A stretch of DNA of 64,000 bases, taken from positions 10,145 through 74,144 of the forward strand of contig JBMNGW010000009.1 of the NCBI GenBank assembly GCA_050950025.1, read 5' to 3'. Positions 23,455 to 54,355 of the stretch are shown one piece after another (position 1 is the first letter of the stretch; every line of letters begins with the position of its first letter). Under the pieces are notes generated by a model. It had not been told where the DNA came from. It made no database searches and saw nothing but the letters and a program-made list of their open reading frames with translations. The DNA is from Sphaerochaetaceae bacterium (GTDB taxonomy: Bacteria; Spirochaetota; Spirochaetia; Sphaerochaetales; Sphaerochaetaceae). The translations under genes were made by a program, and so were the position numbers.

Positions 23455-24345
23455 ATGAATAGGTTACGCCATTATCTGTTGAGCTTCTTTTTAGGTTCCC
23501 TGATTTCAATTATGGTTGTCTGCAACACACTGTTGGGCCAACAAACAACGATGGCCCTCTCTTTTTTCTTTAACCACGGCATCGGCATTGTTTTTCTTTC
23601 GCTGCTCCTTCTTTTTTATAAACCTCATAAAGAAAAGGCCCCTTGGTACCTCTATTTTGGCGGCGTATTTGGTTTTTTCATCCTCAATGCCAACTATGTG
23701 ACAATCACCGCCATCGGTGTCTCTTTGACAATGGCTACTGCTGTCTTTGGGCAAGCCTTAGGCTCTCTTATTTTTGATCTTACTGGGTGGATGCATATGA
23801 AGACCTATCCAATCAGTCGTCGCAAAGCTCTGAGTTTGGCTCTCTGTTTTGTCGGCATCGTTTTGATGGGTGCTGAAGGGGGCTCTTTTCTTCTTCCGTA
23901 TATTCTGCTGGGCATCGCCACTGGCACCATCACTATGATTCAAATGGTCTACAACTCACGCTTGGCAGCCATCAAAGGCATCATCTACAGCGCTCGCAAT
24001 AACGTGCTTAGCGGTTTTATTGTGGCATTGATTATCTATGGCGCAATGGGCTTAGGTCCCACCATACGTGCTTTTTCCTCTTTGAAAACACTTCCTTTGT
24101 ATCTTATAGCTGGAGGCGGAATATTGGCAATGGTCGTGGTGATGGGGACCAACTTTGTTATTCCCAAAATCCCCGTCATTTACAGCGCCCTTTTGCTTAG
24201 CAGTGCCCAAATCATTTCTTCTATTTTTCTTGATCATCTATTAGGGATAACGTTCCCTCCCCTTCTTCTTTTGGGAGCAATCGTCATTTTAGTGGGGATG
24301 GTTATTAATGTCTGGGTCGATTCAATTGAGCGCAAAAGCTCTTAA
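23455..24345 (+). CDS. DMT-superfamily membrane protein (duplicated DUF606/YdcZ-like)
   Basis: 296-aa ORF with about 10 predicted TM segments and two similar halves. Confidence 0.6.
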   Translation: MNRLRHYLLSFFLGSLISIMVVCNTLLGQQTTMALSFFFNHGIGIVFLSLLLLFYKPHKEKAPWYLYFGGVFGFFILNANYVTITAIGVSLTMATAVFGQALGSLIFDLTGWMHMKTYPISRRKALSLALCFVGIVLMGAEGGSFLLPYILLGIATGTITMIQMVYNSRLAAIKGIIYSARNNVLSGFIVALIIYGAMGLGPTIRAFSSLKTLPLYLIAGGGILAMVVVMGTNFVIPKIPVIYSALLLSSAQIISSIFLDHLLGITFPPLLLLGAIVILVGMVINVWVDSIERKSS

Positions 24346-25322
24346 AGCTCACCTGTAATACCATACGAGGAGTTTTGGGCAACAATGAATCCCTCTTTTT
24401 CTAAAGCTTTGAGCGCTTTTTCGATGCGATCCATCTCATAAGGCAGGTGTTGGCCCACTTTTTCTTTCTCTAACGGCCCCTTCTCTTGCAACAAAAAAAG
24501 GACTTTGGCACGAACTTGCCGAGGCGAGTTTTCAAAAGGGCTCTGTTTTGCATACTGAGCGCTGCGACGATTGGGATTAGGGACAAGGGTTTTGAGCTTA
24601 GCTCCCCAATCCAATAATGCATAATACCAATGTTTGTAATCGGTTTGCATCTCAGTCAGCTCTTCCAATTCTGCCAAAAGCGTAGCGTCAGTAACATTTT
24701 CCTGGTGGGGATGAAAGTGGTAGAGAAGAACCCGACGGATATTCGTCTCCAGATAAAGAGCTTTTTGTTGATACGCAAACACCATAATAGCAGCACTGGT
24801 TGCCGCCCCTACCTGTGGTAAAGTCAGTAGCTCTTTTTGCGTTTTAGGCAATTGCCAGCTTTGTTGTTTACTGGAAGTGGCTATTGAGTGCAAAGCCAAA
24901 GCTCTGCGGTTGTATCCCAAGCCCTTCCACATCTGTAAGACCTCGCTTAAAGAGGCTTGAGATAAAGCTTCCAATGTGGGCCACCGCTTAATAAACTGCT
25001 CATATTTAGGTTCCACACGTTCAACTTGAGTCTGCTGAAGCATCATTTCAGAAACAAGGATGTGGTAGGGATTCGTTGTTTGCCGAAAAGAGAATATCCG
25101 CTTATAGAGGCGATAATGCTCCCAAACAGCCAAAGATAGGGCGTTAAAAGCCTCTTTACGCTGGTCTTTAGAAAGCGTTTCGATTGCTACAGCTTTAAGA
25201 CTCAGCAGTATTTTTACCTCGTTGCTTGCGCTTATTTTGTCGCTCTTCTTTGCGCATTTTACGCATTTCACTTCGCTTACGCTCTTCTTCCAGCATCTTG
25301 CGGTACGATTTACCACTGCCAA
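24342..25322 (-). CDS. HhH-GPD base-excision glycosylase, MutY/Nth-like, without Fe-S cysteines, with C-terminal winged-helix-like tail (start uncertain)
   Basis: Contains SEMMLQQTQVERV, GLGYNRRA, LPQVGAATSAAI (HhH) and LLDWGA (catalytic Asp position). No CX6CX2CX5C cluster. The first ATG (25322) overlaps the AI-2E gene by 128 nt; the true start may lie at a non-ATG codon around 25190-25210. Confidence 0.65.
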   Translation of the reverse strand: MAVVNRTARCWKKSVSEVKCVKCAKKSDKISASNEVKILLSLKAVAIETLSKDQRKEAFNALSLAVWEHYRLYKRIFSFRQTTNPYHILVSEMMLQQTQVERVEPKYEQFIKRWPTLEALSQASLSEVLQMWKGLGYNRRALALHSIATSSKQQSWQLPKTQKELLTLPQVGAATSAAIMVFAYQQKALYLETNIRRVLLYHFHPHQENVTDATLLAELEELTEMQTDYKHWYYALLDWGAKLKTLVPNPNRRSAQYAKQSPFENSPRQVRAKVLFLLQEKGPLEKEKVGQHLPYEMDRIEKALKALEKEGFIVAQNSSYGITGEL

Positions 25323-27130: not shown

Positions 27131-27936
27131 TGTCATCTTTTTTAGACCCCCTACCCCGCGTTATTGCCCATCGGGGCGACAGTCATAATCATCCCGAAAA
27201 TACGGTGCCCGCTTTTATAAGCGCGTTAAAGATGGGGATCGATGTCATTGAAACCGATGTCCATCTGACCAAAGATAACCAGATTGTCATTTGGCACGAT
27301 CCCACTTTGGAACGCAACACCAACGGACACGGAAAAATTGAAGATTATACGCTAGCAGAGCTAAAAACCTTTGATGCCGGGTATATGTTTAGCCCTGATG
27401 GGGGAATTACGTATCCCTATCGGGGCACAGGGGTGGTGATGGCAACACTGCAAGAGGCTTTGGAAGCCTGTCCCACGGTACGTTTCAATGTTGATCTTAA
27501 AACAAAAGATCGGAGAATTGTATCTGAATTTGTCCACGTTGTTACTGCTAAGCAGGCCCGCTTGCGAGTTTTATGTGCCAGCTTTCATAAAAGCAACTTA
27601 GATTTAATTCGAAAAACCGATCCCGACATCCTTACCAGTTTAACAACGATTGAAGTACTTCCCCTGCTCCTTAAGCAAAAAATGGGGCTGTTGGGTTCTG
27701 CTTCCAAGCAGAAAAGGAAAATGATTTTTCAAGTGCCGGTGCGCCAGTGGGGCATTGAAGTCATTACCTCCCGTTTTATCGAGGAGTTTCACCGTTTGGG
27801 GGCAATTATCCAAGTGTGGACTATTAACGAGGAAGAGGAGATGAGACGTCTATTTGCCATGGGAGTCGACAGCATTATGACTGACAACCCCGCTTTGGCT
27901 TTAGAAGTAGCTTCTCAAATGGGCCTTATAAATTAG
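27127..27936 (+). CDS. glycerophosphodiester phosphodiesterase family protein
   Basis: 269-aa ORF with VIAHRGDS, IETDVHLTKD and WTINEE motifs. Confidence 0.85.
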   Translation: MMSSFLDPLPRVIAHRGDSHNHPENTVPAFISALKMGIDVIETDVHLTKDNQIVIWHDPTLERNTNGHGKIEDYTLAELKTFDAGYMFSPDGGITYPYRGTGVVMATLQEALEACPTVRFNVDLKTKDRRIVSEFVHVVTAKQARLRVLCASFHKSNLDLIRKTDPDILTSLTTIEVLPLLLKQKMGLLGSASKQKRKMIFQVPVRQWGIEVITSRFIEEFHRLGAIIQVWTINEEEEMRRLFAMGVDSIMTDNPALALEVASQMGLIN

Positions 27937-28736
27937 TCGGAAGCCTCGGGTGTCCCCGCTTCCACTTTTTTAAAGTACTTGTAGGTACTTACCTTCAGCT
28001 CATTAGCTGCCTCTTCGTCACAGACAACCAGACAGTTGCTGTGGCTTTGCAAAATGCTGCAGGGCCACATCTGAGTCATCGGTCCTTCAATCATCGCCTG
28101 CAATGCCCGAGTCTTGCCATACCCATTTACTAATATGACAATCTGTTGGGCATCCATAATAGTTTTGATGCCAACAGTAACAGCCAGTTCGGGAACTTTA
28201 TTAATATCATCGTTAAAAAAACGGGAGTTTGCCGCTCGGGTATCGATTGTCAGTCTTTTCACCCGCGTTTGCGAATCGAAAGAGGAAAAGGGTTCATTAA
28301 AAGCAATATGACCATCTGATCCGATGCCTCCCAAAAAAAGATCGACTCCGCCAAAAGAGGCAATAGTTTTCTCGTACTCATAACACTCTTGGATAATATC
28401 AGGGGCATTGCCGTTTGGAATATGAATGTTTTCTTTGGGAATGTCGATATGCTTAAAAAAATGCTCTTCCATGAAGCGGTGATAGCTTTGTGGATGGTCT
28501 TCGGCCAAACCGATGTACTCATCCATATTAAATGTCACCACATGCTTAAATGATAAACCATCAGTTTGATGAAGTTTGATTAGATGGCGGTAAATTCCTA
28601 TGGGAGTGGATCCGGTAGGCAAACCAAGAACAAAAGGATCAGAAGAAGTTGGTCGATGGGCCCTGATGGCTCTACCTACATAACGGGCAGCCCATTCACT
28701 CATAGATTCATAGTCGTTTTCAATGATTAATCGCAT
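27933..28736 (-). CDS. nagB: glucosamine-6-phosphate deaminase
   Basis: 267-aa ORF with LGLPTGSTP, FNMDEY and GIGSDGHIAFNEP. Confidence 0.93.
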   Translation of the reverse strand: MRLIIENDYESMSEWAARYVGRAIRAHRPTSSDPFVLGLPTGSTPIGIYRHLIKLHQTDGLSFKHVVTFNMDEYIGLAEDHPQSYHRFMEEHFFKHIDIPKENIHIPNGNAPDIIQECYEYEKTIASFGGVDLFLGGIGSDGHIAFNEPFSSFDSQTRVKRLTIDTRAANSRFFNDDINKVPELAVTVGIKTIMDAQQIVILVNGYGKTRALQAMIEGPMTQMWPCSILQSHSNCLVVCDEEAANELKVSTYKYFKKVEAGTPEASD

Positions 28737-28939
28737 TAGGAGCTCCTTTGTGGCACCACAAGAATTTAACCATATTCTTTCGTATCACTCAACAAAAAAT
28801 GGAAAAAAATAGTATTTAGAAGTTCCAAAAACTCCATAACATAACCGCTAATGCCAAATAATTCCTTATCAGGGTTCTGTTTTGGATACCATTGTAAAAA
28901 GAACAGTAAATCAGCAGGTACCCCTCATCCCCTTCTTAT

Positions 28940-31660
28940 ATGATACGATACCCCATTATGGGTCAACGGGTACAATACGATAAACAGACAGTGGCAGTTC
29001 TCCTTTGGGATAAAGAGAGCAGAGCTTGGATTGATCAAAGCTCATCGATTACCGCAATTTACACCGCCTACAGATATAAAAAACATACCGGCTATACTGT
29101 CTATTTTCGGGGATCACAACGCTCTTACTTCTTTAAAAAAGAGAATGTCCGCTTTAAGAAAAAACGGAAAGCTCTTCAAGAACCCATTAGAGAAAAGGAA
29201 GCACCCCCTGTAGCAAAAGATGAAGTAGTACGAACTTTGGAACAGCTTAAGAAAAAACTCAATGCCAACAATTCTTTAAAGAAAGCAGAAACGCATTCTC
29301 CAAAACAGATTCATCAGTTCATTACCTACTACCAGAATCTTGCTGCCTATGCTCAGACCATTGCCGATGAGCAGAGTCCTCTTTTTATTCTTGCCCGCAG
29401 TTATCAACGGATGAATTTTTCTGTTCATTCAGTGTTAAACGATCTTTTTCGCAGCATATCAAGAAAATACCCGTTAGATGAAACGCCAATTATAGCACCC
29501 TTTATTTTTAACCAAAGCCAATTGAAAGCTATTGAACAAGCCCTTTGTTCCTCTATCTCTGTTATCGAAGGGCCCCCAGGAACAGGGAAAACGCAAACAA
29601 TTTTAAATCTTGTTGTTAACCTATTTATACGGGGAAAAAGCTGTGCCGTTGTTTCAAATAACAATACAGCCATTGATAACGTACAACAAAAATTCCAAGA
29701 AACTGAGTTTGAGTTCCTGCTGGCCCGCTTGGGTAACCAAGCATATGTAGAGACTTTTTTTGCCAGTCAAAGCAATGAAACATTAGAGAATCTTTTGCAA
29801 AATGCGTATCAGTACACCCCTTCATTTAACGAAATTGCTGCCCTTCATCACACAATGAAGGAAATTCAACAAGCAGAAGTGAAGCGTTCTCAATTGGAAG
29901 AGACTCGCCGCTGTTTAGAACTTGAATTGAAGCACCATAATGAGAAATGGGACAAAACACACCTTGTGCGACCTCACTACCCTTCTAAGACCTATATCGA
30001 ACTCCTTGTTCGTCTCCAAGAGCCGCGAAAAATAAGGTTTTTTGAGCGCAGGCGACTGGATCGAAAATTTGGCATCAATCTAAGACGCCAAGATCATAAC
30101 CAGCTTCTTGATGAAGCAGAAAACCGTTACTACCAAGCTAAGCTCCAAGAAATCGACCAAGAGCTTGAACAAGGTCAATTTTTTCTGGCCGGTAGTCACC
30201 CCCAAAAGGTAGAAAAGAGACTTCAACACCTCTCAACTCAAACTCTGAAACAAAAACTGATTCAGCACTATCAATCGTTTGAACAAAAACCCTTTACCCA
30301 AGCCACATTCAAACAAGAATTTGCCAGATTTATAAAGCGCTATCCAATCATTTTAAGTACCGCCCAGTCACTGTTGAACAATGTTCCTCATGGCTTTACT
30401 TTCGATTATTTAATTATTGATGAAGCCAGCCAAGGTGATTTATTAAGCAGCATTCTGGCTTTAAACCAAGCAAGAAATGTTGTTGTTATCGGAGACTCCA
30501 AACAACTGCAACAAATTGAGGAAGAGGCACTTTACGCCGAATCACGGCGATTGGCCCAAATCCATGCCATACCGCCCCATTATCGCTATGAAGCCAACTC
30601 AATTTTAACCACCACTAAGAAAGCTATCACTGATGTACCGACAACTCTTTTAAAAGAACACTACCGCTGTCCGCCCGCAATCATTCATTTCTGTAACCAG
30701 ATGTTCTACGATAACCAACTTGTTGCCATGACACATAATCATCAACAACATATTCGCATTATAAAGACTGTTGAAGGCAATCATGCTTACAAAAACCCAT
30801 ATGGTACAGGATTATATAACCAACGAGAAATTGATGAAGTCGGGAAGCTTCTAGAAAACCGAGTGGACCCTGATGTGGGGATTATTGCCCCTTTCCGTTA
30901 TCAAGCCGAATTGCTTAACAATCGCTATAGCTCTGCCACAATTGAGGCCGATACCATTCACCGTTTCCAAGGACGAGAAAAGAAAGAGATTATTCTTTCG
31001 TTCACCGTTAATGATATTGCCCAAGAAGGAAAAGACCGTCTTTCCGATTTTGTTACCAACCATCAACTGCTGAATGTAGCAATTTCACGAGCCAAAAACA
31101 CCATAACTGCCATTGTTTCTCATAAAGTCTACCATTCCAAAAATAATCCTATCAGCGATTTTATCCGCTATGCTGAGTATCACTACGGCTCGGCAGAAGA
31201 GTCGACGGTCACTTCAATTTTTGATCTGTTGCACAGCGATTATTCCAAATCTTATCTTAAAGCCATGCATCGAAAATCCACTCTCTACGCCAGTGAACTA
31301 TGGATGAGAGAGCTTATTACTACATCTCTTACCCATTACCCTAACATTTATGTCTCTATGCACCTGCGTCTTTCAAAACTACTGCGCTCAACAAAAGAAT
31401 TTTCCAAAAAAGAACAAGAATACTTGCTCCATCCTTGGACCCACGTTGATTTTCTCTTTTACAACAAGATTACCAAACAAGCTCTTTTTGTTATTGAAGT
31501 GGATGGAGTAACGTTTCATGAACAAAGGCCCAAACAACGGCGGCAAGATACCCTCAAAGACCGTGCCTTGCGGGCAAACGGCATTCCTGTTCATCGCTTT
31601 AAAACAAACGAATCGGAAGAAGAGAGAAAACTAAAAAACATTCTGGTTGATTATGCCTGA
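28940..31660 (+). CDS. Upf1/DNA2-like SF1 helicase fused to a C-terminal PD-(D/E)xK (Vsr/DUF559/DUF2726-like) endonuclease domain
   Basis: 906-aa ORF. Helicase motifs: Walker A GPPGTGKT, motif II LIIDEASQ, GDSKQL, EHYRC, TIHRFQGRE, LNVAISRAK. C-terminal nuclease-like motifs: HVDFLFY...FVIEVDGVTFHEQ...DRALRANGIPVHRF. The N-terminal ~80 aa and a long coiled-coil insert are unassigned. Confidence 0.8.
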   Translation: MIRYPIMGQRVQYDKQTVAVLLWDKESRAWIDQSSSITAIYTAYRYKKHTGYTVYFRGSQRSYFFKKENVRFKKKRKALQEPIREKEAPPVAKDEVVRTLEQLKKKLNANNSLKKAETHSPKQIHQFITYYQNLAAYAQTIADEQSPLFILARSYQRMNFSVHSVLNDLFRSISRKYPLDETPIIAPFIFNQSQLKAIEQALCSSISVIEGPPGTGKTQTILNLVVNLFIRGKSCAVVSNNNTAIDNVQQKFQETEFEFLLARLGNQAYVETFFASQSNETLENLLQNAYQYTPSFNEIAALHHTMKEIQQAEVKRSQLEETRRCLELELKHHNEKWDKTHLVRPHYPSKTYIELLVRLQEPRKIRFFERRRLDRKFGINLRRQDHNQLLDEAENRYYQAKLQEIDQELEQGQFFLAGSHPQKVEKRLQHLSTQTLKQKLIQHYQSFEQKPFTQATFKQEFARFIKRYPIILSTAQSLLNNVPHGFTFDYLIIDEASQGDLLSSILALNQARNVVVIGDSKQLQQIEEEALYAESRRLAQIHAIPPHYRYEANSILTTTKKAITDVPTTLLKEHYRCPPAIIHFCNQMFYDNQLVAMTHNHQQHIRIIKTVEGNHAYKNPYGTGLYNQREIDEVGKLLENRVDPDVGIIAPFRYQAELLNNRYSSATIEADTIHRFQGREKKEIILSFTVNDIAQEGKDRLSDFVTNHQLLNVAISRAKNTITAIVSHKVYHSKNNPISDFIRYAEYHYGSAEESTVTSIFDLLHSDYSKSYLKAMHRKSTLYASELWMRELITTSLTHYPNIYVSMHLRLSKLLRSTKEFSKKEQEYLLHPWTHVDFLFYNKITKQALFVIEVDGVTFHEQRPKQRRQDTLKDRALRANGIPVHRFKTNESEEERKLKNILVDYA

Positions 31661-31668
31661 TGATACAC

Positions 31669-32730
31669 CTATTGGATAACGCCTCCGCCAAGCACCGCTT
31701 CATCTTGGTAAAAGACAATAGATTGTCCGGGAGTAACGGCCTTTTGAGCCTCAGCAAACCGGACAATCACTGTTTTATTGGCTTGCACATCGATTAAAGC
31801 AGCTTTGGGCTTTCCGGTGGATCGAATTTTGGCTTTCACTTCATACCGGCCGCTAGGCTGTTCAATGAACATCCAATTAAGCTGTTCGGCAACTAAGCTT
31901 TGGGCAAACGTTTGTTCTTCAGTTCCCACGATCACGGTATTGGTTGAAGCATCAACACGCAGTACATAGAGTGGCAAAGCCGAAGAGATCTTCAACCCTC
32001 TTCTTTGGCCGATAGTGAAATTCCAATAGCCATTATGGGTTCCCAAAACAGTTCCCTGAGCATCCTCAATATTTCCTTCTAGCGGTTGGACATCGAGTAA
32101 ATCGCTGTATTGGCCGCTGTAAAAGTCTTGGCTCTCCTCAGTTTCTTCAGCAAAAAGACCAACTTGAAGAGCCAGATGTTTGACATCCTCTTTTTTTAGC
32201 TCTCCTAAGGGGAACATCACTTGAGAAAGCTGTTGTTGAGTAAGGCGATAAAGAAAATAACTTTGGTCTTTTTTAGGATCAAGGCCCATTAACAAGCCCC
32301 ATCTTTGGCCTCTTTTCTCCACACGAGCATAGTGGCCGGTGGCAAAGCGGTCAAACTGTATCCCTTTTTGAGCGGCAATGCGGGGAAGGGCCCCAAATTT
32401 AATCAGGCTGTTACACCAGATGCAGGGATTGGGAGTCCGTCCTGCCTTATACTCATGGCGAAAGTCCTCAAGAACAATCTGCTCATACTCTTTGGCACAA
32501 TCAAGCACATGGTATTCAATACCCAGCATTTCACTGATTCGCTGTGCTTGGGCAATATCTTCAGCTTCGTTAGGCCCGAAGCAGGCATTCTTCTTCAATT
32601 CACCGGTAAAAGGATTCCCCTTTTGCCATATCGACATGGTGGCTCCGACAACCTCGTGTCCTGCCTGCTGTAAAAGCAGAGCCGCAACAGCAGAGTCGAC
32701 TCCACCGCTGAGTCCAACCAATATACGCAT
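31669..32730 (-). CDS. mnmA: tRNA 2-thiouridine(34) synthase
   Basis: 353-aa ORF with MRILVGLSGGVDSAV (PP-loop) and NPCIWCN. Confidence 0.93.
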   Translation of the reverse strand: MRILVGLSGGVDSAVAALLLQQAGHEVVGATMSIWQKGNPFTGELKKNACFGPNEAEDIAQAQRISEMLGIEYHVLDCAKEYEQIVLEDFRHEYKAGRTPNPCIWCNSLIKFGALPRIAAQKGIQFDRFATGHYARVEKRGQRWGLLMGLDPKKDQSYFLYRLTQQQLSQVMFPLGELKKEDVKHLALQVGLFAEETEESQDFYSGQYSDLLDVQPLEGNIEDAQGTVLGTHNGYWNFTIGQRRGLKISSALPLYVLRVDASTNTVIVGTEEQTFAQSLVAEQLNWMFIEQPSGRYEVKAKIRSTGKPKAALIDVQANKTVIVRFAEAQKAVTPGQSIVFYQDEAVLGGGVIQ

Positions 32731-32764
32731 CTATTCCTCCACACGCCCCCAGGCGCAGTACCGT

Positions 32765-32802
32765 AAAAAAGAGAAACCGCTCCGGAAGTCTCCAGAGCGG
32801 TT
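32765..32802 (-). terminator. intrinsic terminator downstream of tRNA-Asp
   Basis: On the minus strand, AACCGCTC-N12-GAGCGGTT (32775-32802) is followed by TCTCTTTTTT. Confidence 0.6.
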
Positions 32803-32806
32803 CAAG

Positions 32807-32880
32807 CGAGGATGACGGGACTCGAACCCGCGATCTACGGCGTGACAGGCCGTCGCGATAACCAACTTCGCTACACCCTC
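32807..32880 (-). tRNA. tRNA-Asp (anticodon GTC)
   Basis: Hand fold: acceptor GAGGGTG/CATCCTC, anticodon stem ACGGC/GCCGT with loop CTGTCAC, T-arm GCGGG-TTCGAGT-CCCGT, discriminator G. No encoded CCA. Confidence 0.88.
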
Positions 32881-32894
32881 ATCAATGCATGAGG

Positions 32895-32923
32895 AACTTA
32901 CAACAACAAATGAGTTTTGTCAA
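32895..32923 (-). promoter_or_regulatory. sigma70-like promoter for tRNA-Asp
   Basis: On the minus strand, TTGACA (32923-32918), a 17-nt spacer and TAAGTT (32900-32895), about 15 nt upstream of the mature tRNA 5' end. Confidence 0.55.
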
Positions 32924-32945
32924 CCTCTGTGTATTGTTCTGTTAT

Positions 32946-33014
32946 TGTTCAGCGATTCTGATACCAACTAAGTGTTCAGCGATTCTGATACCTTTTTGCT
33001 TGTTCAACTGAACA
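32946..33014. repeat. two perfect 20-bp direct repeats (TGTTCAGCGATTCTGATACC) plus a TGTTCA-N2-TGAACA palindrome, in 27-28-bp register
   Basis: Copies at 32946-32965 and 32973-32992, and a palindrome at 33001-33014. TGTTCA begins at 32946, 32973 and 33001. Confidence 0.8.
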
Positions 33015-33168
33015 GTATTTCTATGGCAAATAGGCTGTTTTGTGCCACCCTCTCTTATTGAAACATACCCATTTCTCCCAATGGAGGATTGATTGCTCCC
33101 ATTACAACCATCCCATTAGAGAAAAGTCCATGAGCTTTTACCCCTAAAGCAATACGTCATACCTAAGC

Positions 33169-33264
33169 TTACAAAATACTGATAACTATTAACTGATTGT
33201 TTACAAAATAATGATAACTATTAAGTATAAGTTTACAAAATATTGCAAACTATTTGACTTATAT
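33169..33264. repeat. three tandem 32-bp imperfect direct repeats (TTACAAAATAnTGATAACTATTAA...)
   Basis: Units start at 33169, 33201 and 33233, an exact 32-bp period. Units 1 and 2 are nearly identical over about 24 bp; unit 3 is diverged (TTGCAAACTATTTGA). Confidence 0.8.
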
Positions 33265-33856
33265 CCTGAGTAGAAGGCTCATCCACATCGTTCCCGCCTA
33301 TAAGTGGTTGTTGTAGGGATAAAGGTGTTCCTCTGGCAAAAGCTCATTCCAACACGATGCTTTTGAGTACTTAGAATATCGCTAGCAGCTGCAAAACCCT
33401 CATTATCAAATTTGGGTAGGTCTGCAGAGTTTCATTGCGTGAGTCTTTTGTCTTGATGTGGCAGTGACTCCCTTAAGTTGGAATTCCGCTATCTGTCACC
33501 ATGGTCAAGGTTTTCACTTACAAGGAGGAAAACCAGGATTTAACCCATTGTAAGGCAACAAATAAACTGAACTTTTCTGAAGAATATTTTGTAGTGCTTT
33601 AGACTCATTTCTTTGTTTTGGTCTCTATCCAATGCAATCCTTTGATTAAGTATCCCTTTTGCTGATTTTGTGAAGGCTTGTTTTATTTTTGAATGAGAAG
33701 ATTGGAAGTAATTAGCCACGAAGTTTTGATTGACCACATAAAAAAAGGAGTATCTTCCTTTCATAACACTATTTTACAAAAACGTGTTACGATGGTACCA
33801 CACCATTTAGCTCCTCTTTCTCATTTGGAAAGCTAAATTACCTATTGGAGGTACCA

Positions 33857-42874: not shown

Positions 42875-43333
42875 ATGAAACAGCAGCATGCTAAATTAGT
42901 GCTTGGCCTACTGATTATTTTTGGGGGAATTAATCTGATACCCAAAGCATTGGAACTCTCTTTTTCCCTTTTGTTTTCTGGATGGTGGGCGTTATTACTG
43001 AGTTGTATCGCCTTAGCTTCCACTGTTTTTGGTAGTGTCAATCAGTGGGTCGTGGTGTGGCTTTTTCCCCAATCACACAACTGGCTTTCCCTTTGGCTTG
43101 CTACTTCGCTGTTTGTCGGAGGAGCAATCATTATCTTGGGTCTTCTTTTTCTGCTAAAGAGCAAAGATGAGAAAAAATATCATTTTCCCCACTTTTTTCA
43201 TACGCAGAAAAAAGACGATACTGATGCTCCTTCTTACAGTGCCGTTTTTAGTGGAATGGAGATGAATAACAGCTTAATTAATCTAAGCAGCTGTACTTTG
43301 TTGACTATTTTTGGAGGCAGCGAAATTTTGTGA
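42875..43333 (+). CDS. membrane protein with a short LiaF/DUF2154-like C-terminal stub
   Basis: 152-aa ORF with 3-4 TM segments. The tail ...VFSGMEMNN...LLTIFGGSEIL resembles the first repeat of the LiaF C-domain and then stops. Confidence 0.45.
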   Translation: MKQQHAKLVLGLLIIFGGINLIPKALELSFSLLFSGWWALLLSCIALASTVFGSVNQWVVVWLFPQSHNWLSLWLATSLFVGGAIIILGLLFLLKSKDEKKYHFPHFFHTQKKDDTDAPSYSAVFSGMEMNNSLINLSSCTLLTIFGGSEIL

Positions 43334-44058
43334 ATAGGAAGTCCAGTCCTCTGTTAAAAGTTATTAACGTAGCCTTTTTAATTGGTGTGTTGGCTCTCTT
43401 TGGCAGCTGCGCTGTTTTTCAAGGCTTGCAGCTTACCGCCACTTCACAGGGGTGGGCAACAACCGATTTGTATGTCTACGACTTTTTCTTAACACTGCTT
43501 GAAGATTTTGAGCCTTTTTCGGAAACTGAGCGGACTGTCTCAATTATGGATGAACATGTTGATGATGTGATGAGGCAGTTGCATGCTTCACCAAGTGCCA
43601 CTCACATATCGTTAGTCAAAAACAGCAAAAACAGCTATTTCATCGATTTCACTTTCTCCAGCTTAGTTAATTTGCTCAATGATTTGAATCGTAACCAACA
43701 GCAAAATATCATCAGAGTAAAGGGCAACTCGCTCCACTTTTACCTCGATATCGATAATTATCCCCAGCTGGAAAATATGGTCCCCTTTTTACAAGATCCC
43801 AATTTTGAAACTTTTGGACCTTTGTATAACATTGGTATGAGTGAAGAAGAGTATCTTGATATGATTAGCTACATCCTAGGAGAGGAAGGGCCCCCTTCAA
43901 TTGAAAGCAGTATTATCGCACTGAATTTCACCACCCCCTCGCCAATCACCTCTTATAGTGGAGGGGAAAAAACTGGGGCTAATTCAATCCGTTTTGATAT
44001 CCCCCTCATCGATTTTCTGCTACTGGCAACTCCTATTGAGTTTAGTCTTTCGTGGTAA
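43330..44058 (+). CDS. lipoprotein of unknown function
   Basis: 242-aa ORF with lipobox LFGSC. 4-nt overlap with the preceding gene. Confidence 0.55.
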   Translation: MNRKSSPLLKVINVAFLIGVLALFGSCAVFQGLQLTATSQGWATTDLYVYDFFLTLLEDFEPFSETERTVSIMDEHVDDVMRQLHASPSATHISLVKNSKNSYFIDFTFSSLVNLLNDLNRNQQQNIIRVKGNSLHFYLDIDNYPQLENMVPFLQDPNFETFGPLYNIGMSEEEYLDMISYILGEEGPPSIESSIIALNFTTPSPITSYSGGEKTGANSIRFDIPLIDFLLLATPIEFSLSW

Positions 44059-53410: not shown

Positions 53411-54355
53411 TTAGCCCACTCTAAGTCTGTTTATTCTTGAACCTATCAACTCTTTGTAGTTTGTTTGCTCTTTAGTGGGTAACAAGCTTTGGTCAATCTC
53501 TTCATAAAATCGGCCCTTCAAGCTCATCAGCCGATTCATCAGAGTCTCTGATGCTTTGGCATTAATGCCATAAGCTTCAGCTAAGTATAAAAAGTCAGCT
53601 CTATTAAGCTTGCTCCGTTTTCCTCGTAACGTAAGAGCACTCTCTTCTAAGTCTTCTTTGAGTATGAGATTAGTAGGAAGTAAATCATAGGCTGGTGTTA
53701 ACACATACTGCAGGTTATCAGGGGCATATAAAGAGAAGTTCTTTAAGTGCATATCACTGTTGCCGGTAATAAAAGAGAAAACAAGGAGGGACCACAAGGT
53801 AATAGCATCGAGTAAGCGAGGCGAGTAGCGTTTCAATATTTTGCCAAGGTGCTCATATGATGAACGATATTTATCTTCAGTTAATCTTTCTCCAAGCTGA
53901 CAAAAATCTTCCATCGCTATTTTTTTATTATGAAGTCGATCAATACGTTTACATAAATATGCATATTCTCCATCTTCTAGACGATAAAGAGCATGTTCGA
54001 CAGTCTCAATGTTTGCTAATGAGGCCAGATGCATTGTCAGATGTTCAAATTCAGGGAGATAGGGATATTCCTTACTGGGAAGTTTAAGGATATACCCAAG
54101 GGGCTGACCAATGAGTGTTAATTGGCCTTTGCCTAGTTCACCTGATAAATGCAAAGATAATTTCTTTTGGACACCCGGTACAGCATATCCCTCTTGCACA
54201 CTCTGCGTTACAGCTTGTTCAAGAAACTCACTTGTAAGGTTAAGGGGAGGTAGGACCGATACACCAAAAAACTGCTTAACACATGATGAATGCCACTGAT
54301 TTTGGTGATGTTCATCTGTTATTGGTCTATTACAATGCAAACATCTTTTTTTCAT
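53411..54355 (-). CDS. hipT: HipT-type HipA-family Ser/Thr kinase toxin (kinase core only) with N-terminal CxxC...HxxC element
   Basis: 314-aa ORF with Gly-rich loop VPGVQKKLSL and catalytic loop GNSDMHLKNFS. The N-terminal HipA subdomain is missing and is encoded separately upstream. Confidence 0.8.
   Translation of the reverse strand: MKKRCLHCNRPITDEHHQNQWHSSCVKQFFGVSVLPPLNLTSEFLEQAVTQSVQEGYAVPGVQKKLSLHLSGELGKGQLTLIGQPLGYILKLPSKEYPYLPEFEHLTMHLASLANIETVEHALYRLEDGEYAYLCKRIDRLHNKKIAMEDFCQLGERLTEDKYRSSYEHLGKILKRYSPRLLDAITLWSLLVFSFITGNSDMHLKNFSLYAPDNLQYVLTPAYDLLPTNLILKEDLEESALTLRGKRSKLNRADFLYLAEAYGINAKASETLMNRLMSLKGRFYEEIDQSLLPTKEQTNYKELIGSRINRLRVG

Follow-up and report, generated by a model that had tools for sequence, protein, structure and literature searches.

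Several bacterial defence systems couple an ATP-driven motor to a nuclease effector, often in a protein that acts alone. Nhi, Hna, HmaA, DdmD, ArmC and Hachiman share this logic and have been proposed to sense replication intermediates or DNA ends, and a helicase fused to a C-terminal Vsr-type or PD-(D/E)xK nuclease has been validated as a defence effector in Hhe, Hna, HmaA, DdmD and ArmC. Here we describe a gene of comparable design in a stretch of 64,000 nucleotides from a Sphaerochaetaceae bacterium (Spirochaetota; GenBank assembly GCA_050950025.1, contig JBMNGW010000009.1, positions 10,145 to 74,144 of the forward strand), which we refer to as the window and in whose numbering all coordinates are given unless a locus is named. 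An intact open reading frame (ORF) of 906 amino acids (aa) at 28940-31660 (+) is predicted to encode a Upf1-like superfamily 1 (SF1) helicase followed by a PD-(D/E)xK endonuclease domain of the Vsr clade, and we call it the helicase-nuclease gene. By analogy with the systems above, we consider it reasonably probable that this is a horizontally acquired accessory gene whose product, a stand-alone, one-protein system, would defend the cell against phages or invading DNA of other kinds.

The systems differ from the window protein in distinct ways. Hna, HmaA, DdmD, ArmC and the HamB protein of Hachiman are superfamily 2 helicases, whereas the window protein belongs to SF1. Nhi, of ~610 aa, joins an HsdR-like nuclease at its N-terminus to a DUF2075-type helicase (PMC11232893), while the nuclease of the window protein is C-terminal and of the Vsr type. 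Mokosh has a COG1112/Upf1-like helicase in common with the window protein, and its type II form (MkoC) is likewise a single helicase-plus-nuclease protein, but the Mokosh nuclease is a PLD domain and not a C-terminal PD-(D/E)xK domain. Hhe is encoded by a single gene as well and consists of DUF4011, an SF1 helicase and a C-terminal Vsr endonuclease (Gao et al., 2020); it shares with the window protein an AAA_11/AAA_12 helicase followed by a C-terminal Vsr-superfamily nuclease. The Hhe nuclease is needed for defence, which is abolished by the E1731A change. Hhe is, however, about twice as long, with hidden Markov models of 1,797-1,911 positions.

The closest published description is that of CnuH from Type III-B CoCoNuT systems. 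CnuH combines a UPF1-like SF1 helicase with additional N-terminal domains and a stalk, and its Walker A is followed by a large coiled-coil insertion (Bell et al., eLife 2024, PMC11090510), and in Type III-B a Vsr-like nuclease is fused straight to its C-terminus (PMC11090510). The window protein is likened to this fusion by description and not by sequence, and the CoCoNuT systems, including their RNA targeting, are computational predictions only (PMC11090510). They are defined by the McrB-like (NxD) GTPase CnuB, the McrC-like CnuC, CnuA and CnuD, none of which is found in the window or recurs in the 41 loci of relatives described below. The N-termini differ too: that of Type III-B is a Sul7s-like winged helix-turn-helix with an OB fold, whereas the family of the window protein has one small beta-domain, canonically two, with no significant fold match. 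Among solved structures, the closest motor cores are those of IGHMBP2, UPF1, SETX/Sen1, DNA2, ZNFX1 and nsp13, at only 13-18 % identity. The Upf1-like helicases of eukaryotes and viruses have no C-terminal Vsr-type nuclease, DNA2 carries its PD-(D/E)xK nuclease at the N-terminus, and the accessory domains differ.

Results

A Upf1-like motor followed by a Vsr-clade nuclease

Residue numbers throughout refer to the 906-aa frame. All helicase motifs quoted in the initial annotation are present, namely GPPGTGKT at residue 211, IIDEASQ at 492, GDSKQL at 518, EHYRC at 573, QGRE at 677 and ISRAK at 715. They make up a complete SF1 set (Walker A, a DEAS-type motif II, and motifs III, IV, V and VI) that is invariant across the family. 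Two Pfam domains match over their gathering thresholds, AAA_11 at aa 190-524 (7.9e-27) and AAA_12 at aa 563-726 (4.5e-22). The first corresponds to RecA1 (29507..30511, +), with Walker A at 211, the DEAS of motif II at 494 and motif III reading GDSKQLQQ from 518, and the second to RecA2 (30626..31117, +), in which EHYRC, QGRE and ISRAK hold invariant residues. An AlphaFold2 model of the protein (pLDDT, the predicted local distance difference test score, 78; predicted template modelling score, pTM, 0.69) was compared with solved structures by Foldseek, and the core matched IGHMBP2 (1.3e-18), UPF1 (7.4e-18), SETX (2.1e-17) and DNA2 (2.5e-16), with further matches to Sen1, Aquarius, ZNFX1 and nsp13 and an overall range of E from 1e-18 to 1e-12, the E values for IGHMBP2, UPF1, SETX, DNA2 and ZNFX1 lying between 1e-18 and 1e-13. 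At the level of sequence, Upf1-like helicases of solved structure were matched with E down to 3.5e-16. Judged from sequence and model, the motor is a Upf1-like SF1B helicase.

Within RecA1, between motifs Ia and II, lies a predicted helical, coiled-coil-like insert of ~200 aa (aa ~265-470; 29732..30349, +), with modelled helices at 296-334, 349-359, 367-377, 386-419 and 421-445. The AAA_11 match covers 335 residues for a model of 257 positions, and because this span exceeds the model and the helices are long, the insert, which had been proposed earlier to lie between motifs I and II, is real. Helicase and nuclease are joined by a helical linker (aa 737-797; 31148..31330, +) with predicted helices at 737-749, 763-778 and 784-797, in which Y744, E746, Y749, F761, D762, E786 and L787 are conserved.

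The C-terminal domain carries the motifs HVDFLFY at residue 835, IEVDG at 852, FHEQ at 859 and HRFKT at 885. Pfam assigns aa 802-901 (31343..31642, +) to DUF2726 (PF10881), a Vsr-clade PD-(D/E)xK endonuclease domain, at 6.5e-10 and 39.3 bits against a cut-off of 24.7, and DUF559 and MTES_1575 match the same stretch weakly. Ten residues (D837, E853, D855, G856, H860, Q866, D870, K873, R886 and T889) do not vary among relatives from six phyla, even at ~30 % identity, and residues 803-888 form a compact alpha/beta fold in the structure model. When a profile of the nuclease region was compared with the sequences of the Protein Data Bank (PDB), the only match was 3r3p, the Vsr-clade homing endonuclease I-Bth0305I, which is non-significant (E = 0.33) and is aligned at E-V-D-G. 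As far as the conserved residues tell, the active site of a Vsr-clade (DUF2726) nuclease is kept intact, and the earlier assignment to the Vsr/DUF559/DUF2726 group agrees with both the above-threshold DUF2726 match and the invariant catalytic residues. A census of PD-(D/E)xK proteins places DUF2726 together with Vsr and DUF559 (PMC3424549), and DUF2726 has been noted as an effector of restriction endonuclease fold fused to defence-type N-terminal domains (PMC3710099).

Insertion of the gene between mnmA and nagB

As first described, the 906-aa ORF stands alone between nagB and mnmA and is oriented opposite to both. The left boundary of the insertion site is a nagB-like gene (27933-28736, -; Glucosamine_iso, 6e-26), which adjoins mnmA in related genomes, and the right boundary is mnmA itself (31669-32730, -), whose product is 100 % identical to the MnmA of a Sphaerochaetaceae metagenome-assembled genome. 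In six contigs from two related Sphaerochaetaceae species, with MnmA 65-66 % identical to that of the window, mnmA is directly followed by nagB at a distance of 78-89 bp. The window and the six contigs also share the downstream order GDPD, SpoU methylase, AI-2E transporter, HhH-GPD, YdcZ and 5'-nucleotidase. Since mnmA and nagB are directly adjacent in the related species, the helicase-nuclease gene is an insertion, and the sequence comparison makes it a ~2.9-kb lineage-specific one in a conserved mnmA-nagB junction. No flanking direct or inverted repeats, integrase or Rfam element was found at the insertion. Because it is absent from the orthologous site in the sister species, we regard the gene as accessory and not as part of core repair.

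Base composition points the same way. The gene has a GC content of 0.407 against a mean of 0.456 for the 49 window genes (z = -2.2; ~5 points lower), and its GC content at third codon positions (GC3) is 0.374 against a mean of 0.453 (z = -2.1). The departure from the window is real but small, so that the impression by eye of a gene more AT-rich than its neighbours was right in a modest way. We relied on the GC and GC3 z-scores because codon-usage distance to the window pool scales with gene length; this measure, by which the helicase gene ranked 38 of 49, was dropped. Taken with the empty junction in the six contigs, low GC and GC3 support the horizontal acquisition that had been suspected from AT-richness.

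Comparison with models of named systems

Searches with the PADLOC models gave MkoA of Mokosh type I (1.9e-44) and MkoC of type II (2.6e-40) as best matches and, in addition, PDC-S37, Hhe (3e-11) and DpdJ, all restricted to the helicase core. The MkoA alignment pairs query residues 187-748 with positions 615-1101 of a profile of 1112, and the PADLOC matches of the relatives are likewise confined to the core. Mokosh membership was rejected, as no PLD domain is among the Pfam matches at E <= 1. Hhe was rejected on two counts: DUF4011 is absent (Pfam, E <= 1), and the NCBIfam model NF042953 scores 57.6 bits against a cut-off of 2,000. The PADLOC Hhe model gives 39 bits over short helicase stretches and leaves the nuclease and the N-terminal module uncovered. 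For Nhi, the PADLOC model PDLC02372 had no match at E <= 1, and membership was rejected. Hachiman, composed of the HamA (DUF1837) nuclease and HamB, was rejected for a protein that is encoded by a single gene, has an SF1 helicase and has no DUF1837. CoCoNuT, finally, was rejected because the McrBC-type operon partners are absent and the flanking genes are nagB and mnmA.

NCBIfam holds no model for the helicase-nuclease family, and its best matches are far under their cut-offs: IGHMBP2 (132 bits against 349), Hhe NF042953 as above, ProA (82 against 1,500) and PLuB (105 against 999). RecD and RecD2 also score far below cut-off. The family is hence unnamed by the annotation resources tested, in line with the initial annotation, which had placed the protein outside every named system. 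Its further statement that the domain order matches nothing known was too strong, because Hhe and Type III-B CnuH share the order of helicase and then Vsr, and the helicase-nuclease logic of defence itself has precedents.

A large family with a patchy distribution

The query has more than 3,000 matching proteins. Hundreds of them have a length of ~910 aa, share its Pfam architecture and align to 99 % of it at 43-49 % identity; the sources of these close relatives are Acholeplasmataceae, Izemoplasmatales, Tissierellia, CSSED10-310 and many metagenomes, and their annotation goes no further than 'AAA family ATPase' or 'superfamily I DNA and/or RNA helicase'. In a scan of one genome per species, full-length matches were found in Spirochaetota, Fibrobacterota and Bacteroidales, and residues ~184-902 were matched at 30-39 % identity in Mycoplasma, Bacilli, Clostridia, Helicobacter, Pseudomonas, Burkholderia, Gilliamella, Streptococcus sanguinis, Leifsonia and others. 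Overall, the family is spread patchily over at least 10 phyla, including Spirochaetota, Fibrobacterota, Bacteroidota, Mycoplasmatota, Bacillota, Campylobacterota, Pseudomonadota and Actinomycetota, and nearly all of these genes have 850-930 codons. Ten of ten distant relatives, from six or more phyla, have an AAA_11 match spanning ~340 aa (insert included), AAA_12 and DUF2726, and no N-terminal domain was recognised in them by Pfam.

The Escherichia coli relative, WP_236479692.1 (893 aa, annotated 'AAA domain-containing protein'), occurs in 648 of 5,426 complete E. coli genomes (12 %), including enterohaemorrhagic E. coli O157:H7 and O104:H4. In P0001, the relative nearest to the window protein (63 % identity), an IS110 insertion sequence (IS) element interrupts the protein at query residue ~777 (locus L001, 885-4735); no nuclease remnant was detected past the element, and the locus looks like an IS-inactivated copy. 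Matches were found in 19 of 72,556 plasmid records (plasmids and megaplasmids) and in 2 of 50,697 phage records, and one partial match lies on a gut 'Bacteriophage sp.' contig. The patchy distribution, the minority of E. coli genomes and the IS disruption together speak for an accessory gene that moves horizontally and against an enzyme of core repair. The alternative of a universally conserved, syntenic repair helicase does not describe what we see, either in the distribution of the family or at the sister-species junction.

Genomic neighbourhoods of the relatives

We collected the 138 genes that lie within two positions of a helicase-nuclease gene in 41 loci. Their products match 160 Pfam families, none of which occurs in more than five proteins, and McrB/McrC are not among the recurring families. 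The lack of any commonly recurring neighbour family implies that there is no conserved partner gene, as expected of the single-gene system that had been proposed. PADLOC matches among the neighbours were PDC-S01 (DUF4143/AAA_14, 5-6 proteins), Azaca ZacB/ZacC, AbiEii, AbiO, mad3, PDC-S34, PDC-M66 and PDC-S02, and plain housekeeping genes are also present.

Defence genes were frequent. Of the 12 loci that were resolved gene by gene, a small sample with no formal background control, six carry established defence genes at most two genes away from the helicase-nuclease gene, which bears on the suggestion that homologues would be associated with such genes. These neighbours include Mrr and Shedu (SduA_C), accompanied by an AAA_15/21 ATPase, SLFN_AlbA_2, DUF4143 and RelB/Fic; a NERD-UvrD helicase and a large serine recombinase; and full-length Azaca ZacB (9e-146) and ZacC (6e-285). 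In L094 (3862-10742), a complete Gabija pair of GajA, with its OLD-like TOPRIM domain, and GajB ends 20 bp before the start of the helicase-nuclease gene on the same strand, so that co-transcription of the pair and the helicase-nuclease gene is possible, and a YhcG-type nuclease follows downstream.

Further loci are suggestive. One encodes a 1,654-aa protein with a faint nSTAND3 match, and in another the gene neighbours valS and a PIN/Phd pair lies at a distance of 1.6 kb. The third is an E. coli island (L092, 11488-16525, pB39_V) with an AlpA regulator, IS1, IS66, a YeeP-type GTPase and Cah, in which the relative is followed by a PAPS-reductase-like gene (weak BrxP match, 9e-08) and a gene with a ParB-N domain, an IbrA/IbrB-like pair.

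A family-specific N-terminal module

Ahead of the helicase the family has a module of ~180 aa, canonically made up of two small beta-domains and a helical bundle. In a model of the canonical form (pLDDT 86), the beta-domains lie at 12-73 and 78-118 and helices follow, and the strands at 78-118 have a pLDDT of ~90. The 'unassigned ~80-aa N-terminal domain' of the initial annotation is correct in that no Pfam domain is found there; its extent was underestimated, as it is only the first part of this module.

In the window protein, the first part is a predicted all-beta domain of seven strands (aa 5-74; 28952..29161, +; pLDDT ~75-85) with conserved W30, D32, G51, Y52, F56, F64 and Y65. It is followed by a K/E-rich linker (aa 77-119; 29168..29296, +), predicted to be disordered (pLDDT 28-35), in which 39 % of the residues are charged. 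The third part is a helical bundle (aa 121-170; 29300..29449, +; helices 121-141, 147-156 and 165-170) with invariant Y130, L134, A138, P147, L148 and L151, which is possibly the 'stalk' of Upf1/DNA2-like helicases, by analogy with CnuH (PMC11090510). Relative P0001 matches the module profile in two stretches, as the window protein does; both retain the first beta-domain and have the linker where the second would stand, and P0248 and P0249 probably share this N-terminal variant.

A fold search of the PDB with the canonical module gave no significant match (best E = 0.16); the weak ones were to Tudor/SAWADEE, KOW and SH3-like barrels. An exhaustive search of 1.84 billion representative proteins with the module profile returned 85 matches, all at the extreme N-terminus and all with AAA_11 next, at ~residue 178. 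We had considered whether the module might be a shuffled sensor cassette and rejected this, as it is found only at the N-terminus of this helicase family; its confinement there points to a fast-evolving, family-specific domain. Two proteins, P0269 (717 aa) and P0288 (498 aa), carry the module and a helicase that lacks the long RecA1 insert, the former also without detectable DUF2726, and are either trimmed variants or fragments.

Gene start, upstream gap and other features of the window

The likely start of the protein is M7 (ATG at 28958). We revised it from the upstream ATG because the equivalent MG.K is the start in 27 of 27 aligned relatives and because an independent assembly holds a record of the 900-aa product, whereas an exact look-up of the 906-aa form gave no match. 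On these alignments the helicase-nuclease gene probably runs from 28958 to 31660 (+) and encodes 900 aa, with the ATG at 28940 as the alternative for 906 aa. No clear Shine-Dalgarno sequence is found ahead of either ATG. At its 3' end the gene converges with mnmA, and 8 bp separate the two stop codons.

Between the divergent nagB and helicase-nuclease genes lies an AT-rich intergenic gap (28737..28957), which presumably holds the promoters of both. Measured to the 28940 start it is 203 bp long with a GC content of 0.355, matching the ~200-bp AT-rich gap first noticed, and ranks among the lowest 1.3 % of 203-bp windows. Its minus strand carries a visible ribosome-binding site for nagB, AAGGAG.

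On the other side of mnmA, just upstream of it, is a gene for tRNA-Asp (GTC) at 32806-32880 (-). Beyond this tRNA, ~960 bp contain no listed ORF of at least 80 aa before a Peripla_BP_2 ABC-transporter operon begins. The stretch 32731-33844, with a GC content of 0.40 overall, is where synteny with the related Sphaerochaetaceae ends, the relatives having PAP2 and topoisomerase I on that side of mnmA, and possibly marks another rearrangement or the scar of an integration. Further along the syntenic side, the HhH-GPD glycosylase ORF at 24342-25322 (-), of 326 aa with a TTG start, shares ~130 bp with the AI-2E transporter gene; because an independent assembly calls a product of 234 aa, the real start lies further downstream.

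With respect to composition, the lowest-GC gene of the window is at 53411-54355 (-), with GC 0.390 (z = -2.9) and GC3 0.333 (z = -3.1). It encodes 313 aa with a HipA_C kinase match (4e-41) and is probably the toxin of a toxin-antitoxin pair, also horizontally acquired. Two adjoining low-GC ORFs at 42875-44058 (+), of 152 and 242 aa with GC 0.403 and 0.416, have no Pfam match.

Discussion

The helicase-nuclease is a gene whose defence role is argued from guilt by association, and on that footing it is supported as a candidate. If it does act against invading DNA, the motor would engage single-stranded nucleic acid that the invader's replication, recombination or transcription intermediates expose, and would move 5'->3' with ATP, like Upf1/DNA2-class enzymes. 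The N-terminal barrel, the stalk and the coiled-coil insert may gate substrate access or mediate oligomerisation. Translocation or stalling would then position or license the C-terminal Mg2+-dependent endonuclease to nick or cut DNA, and cutting would destroy the invader directly or, if indiscriminate, abort the infection. Since neither a methyltransferase nor a partner gene accompanies the protein, the protein would have to tell self from non-self by the structure of the nucleic-acid intermediate, a solution already suggested for Nhi, Hna and Hachiman.

A number of observations weigh against a defence role. The direction of translocation and the nucleic-acid substrate, DNA or RNA, are assigned by family membership only. 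The association with defence genes is well above random expectation, but it comes from a small sample of 12 loci with no formal background control; three of these loci (the window, L003 and L093) have no defence neighbours, and several of the PADLOC matches among the 138 neighbours are unvalidated 'PDC' candidates. The window protein has the disordered 77-119 linker in place of the second beta-domain, which could impair its function. Neither a scan of the upstream gap for the sigma-70 consensus nor a comparison of promoter and terminator signals with shuffled background called anything above expectation. Full-text literature searches for this domain combination returned no paper that names or tests the family, and no phenotype for any member.

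The RNA helicase character of the motor's closest structural matches raises a different reading, in which the protein is directed at RNA, as an enzyme of surveillance or defence, and descends as an autonomous form from the Type III-B CoCoNuT CnuH-Vsr module; its motor would track phage or aberrant RNA or RNA:DNA hybrids while the Vsr-like domain cuts RNA or transcribed DNA. The architecture does fit the published description of CnuH, down to a small N-terminal domain of nucleic-acid-binding type, the closest solved structures (IGHMBP2, UPF1 and SETX/Sen1) are RNA helicases, and the top PADLOC matches, MkoA and MkoC, are the 'RNA helicase' components of Mokosh. We still regard this reading as unlikely. 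The window has none of CnuB, CnuC, CnuA and CnuD, and the 138 neighbours do not show them repeatedly either, the likeness to Type III-B CnuH is by description only, and the RNA targeting of CoCoNuT is itself a prediction. Moreover, the Upf1/DNA2 clade also holds motors on single-stranded DNA, and the characterised Vsr/DUF559/DUF2726 enzymes are DNA endonucleases (PMC3424549). A related proposal for the family as a whole is equally doubtful in our judgement: that it constitutes an overlooked and very common single-protein immune system, a minimal and autonomous version of the module of Upf1-like helicase and Vsr nuclease that CoCoNuT embeds in McrBC operons, and that it would sense RNA or transcription and replication hybrids with the N-terminal beta-barrel module as specificity element.

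Helicase plus PD-(D/E)xK nuclease is also the logic of the host enzymes DNA2, RecB and AddA, and a role in host DNA repair, recombination or replication restart, analogous to DNA2 or AddA/RecB, therefore has to be weighed. DNA2 is among the top matches in both sequence and structure, and some copies sit among housekeeping genes (the window, L093 and L095). Such a role is improbable, however, for a gene that is missing from the orthologous site in sister species, is patchy over phyla and found in only 12 % of E. coli genomes, has one copy disrupted by an IS, often adjoins defence systems, and scores far below the NCBIfam cut-offs for RecD/RecD2.

The mobility of the family allows for yet another interpretation, namely that the gene is cargo serving a mobile element (in inter-element competition, plasmid exclusion or addiction) and that its position in defence islands reflects shared integration hot spots. 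A serine recombinase adjoins the copy in L002, IS elements and the AlpA regulator surround the E. coli copy, other copies are on plasmids and megaplasmids with a partial match on the gut phage contig, and DUF2726 proteins have been noted near mobile elements (PMC3424549). On the other hand, the insertion in the window has no integrase, flanking repeats or other cargo, and the phage and plasmid records with a match are few (2 and 19, respectively). We give this interpretation little credence, and it overlaps with a defence role rather than excluding one. That the window copy is an inactive remnant, decaying after loss of the second N-terminal beta-domain, is very improbable: the disordered K/E-rich 77-119 stands where relatives have a well-folded domain and no promoter was called, but the 2.7-kb frame is intact with all helicase and nuclease catalytic residues kept, and the same N-terminal variant is found in P0001 and probably in P0248 and P0249, its presence in a relative of only 63 % identity marking it as a conserved sub-lineage and not a one-off lesion.

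Whatever its function, the family is common, with thousands of homologues in at least 10 phyla and in 12 % of complete E. coli genomes, and yet the tested annotation models miss it, and its label is only 'AAA domain-containing protein'. Should it turn out not to be protective, it would be an ordinary accessory helicase-nuclease. If it is protective, a compact (~900 aa) single-gene helicase-nuclease system would be added to the catalogue of defence systems, and the family would test whether the CnuH-Vsr module predicted for CoCoNuT works without McrBC. Upf1-class motors are central to RNA surveillance and antiviral sensing in eukaryotes. A protective helicase-nuclease would provide a tractable bacterial model for a motor of this class coupled to a nuclease and, if the protein senses RNA or hybrids, a bacterial effector of nucleic-acid surveillance in the style of Upf1, ZNFX1 and MOV10.

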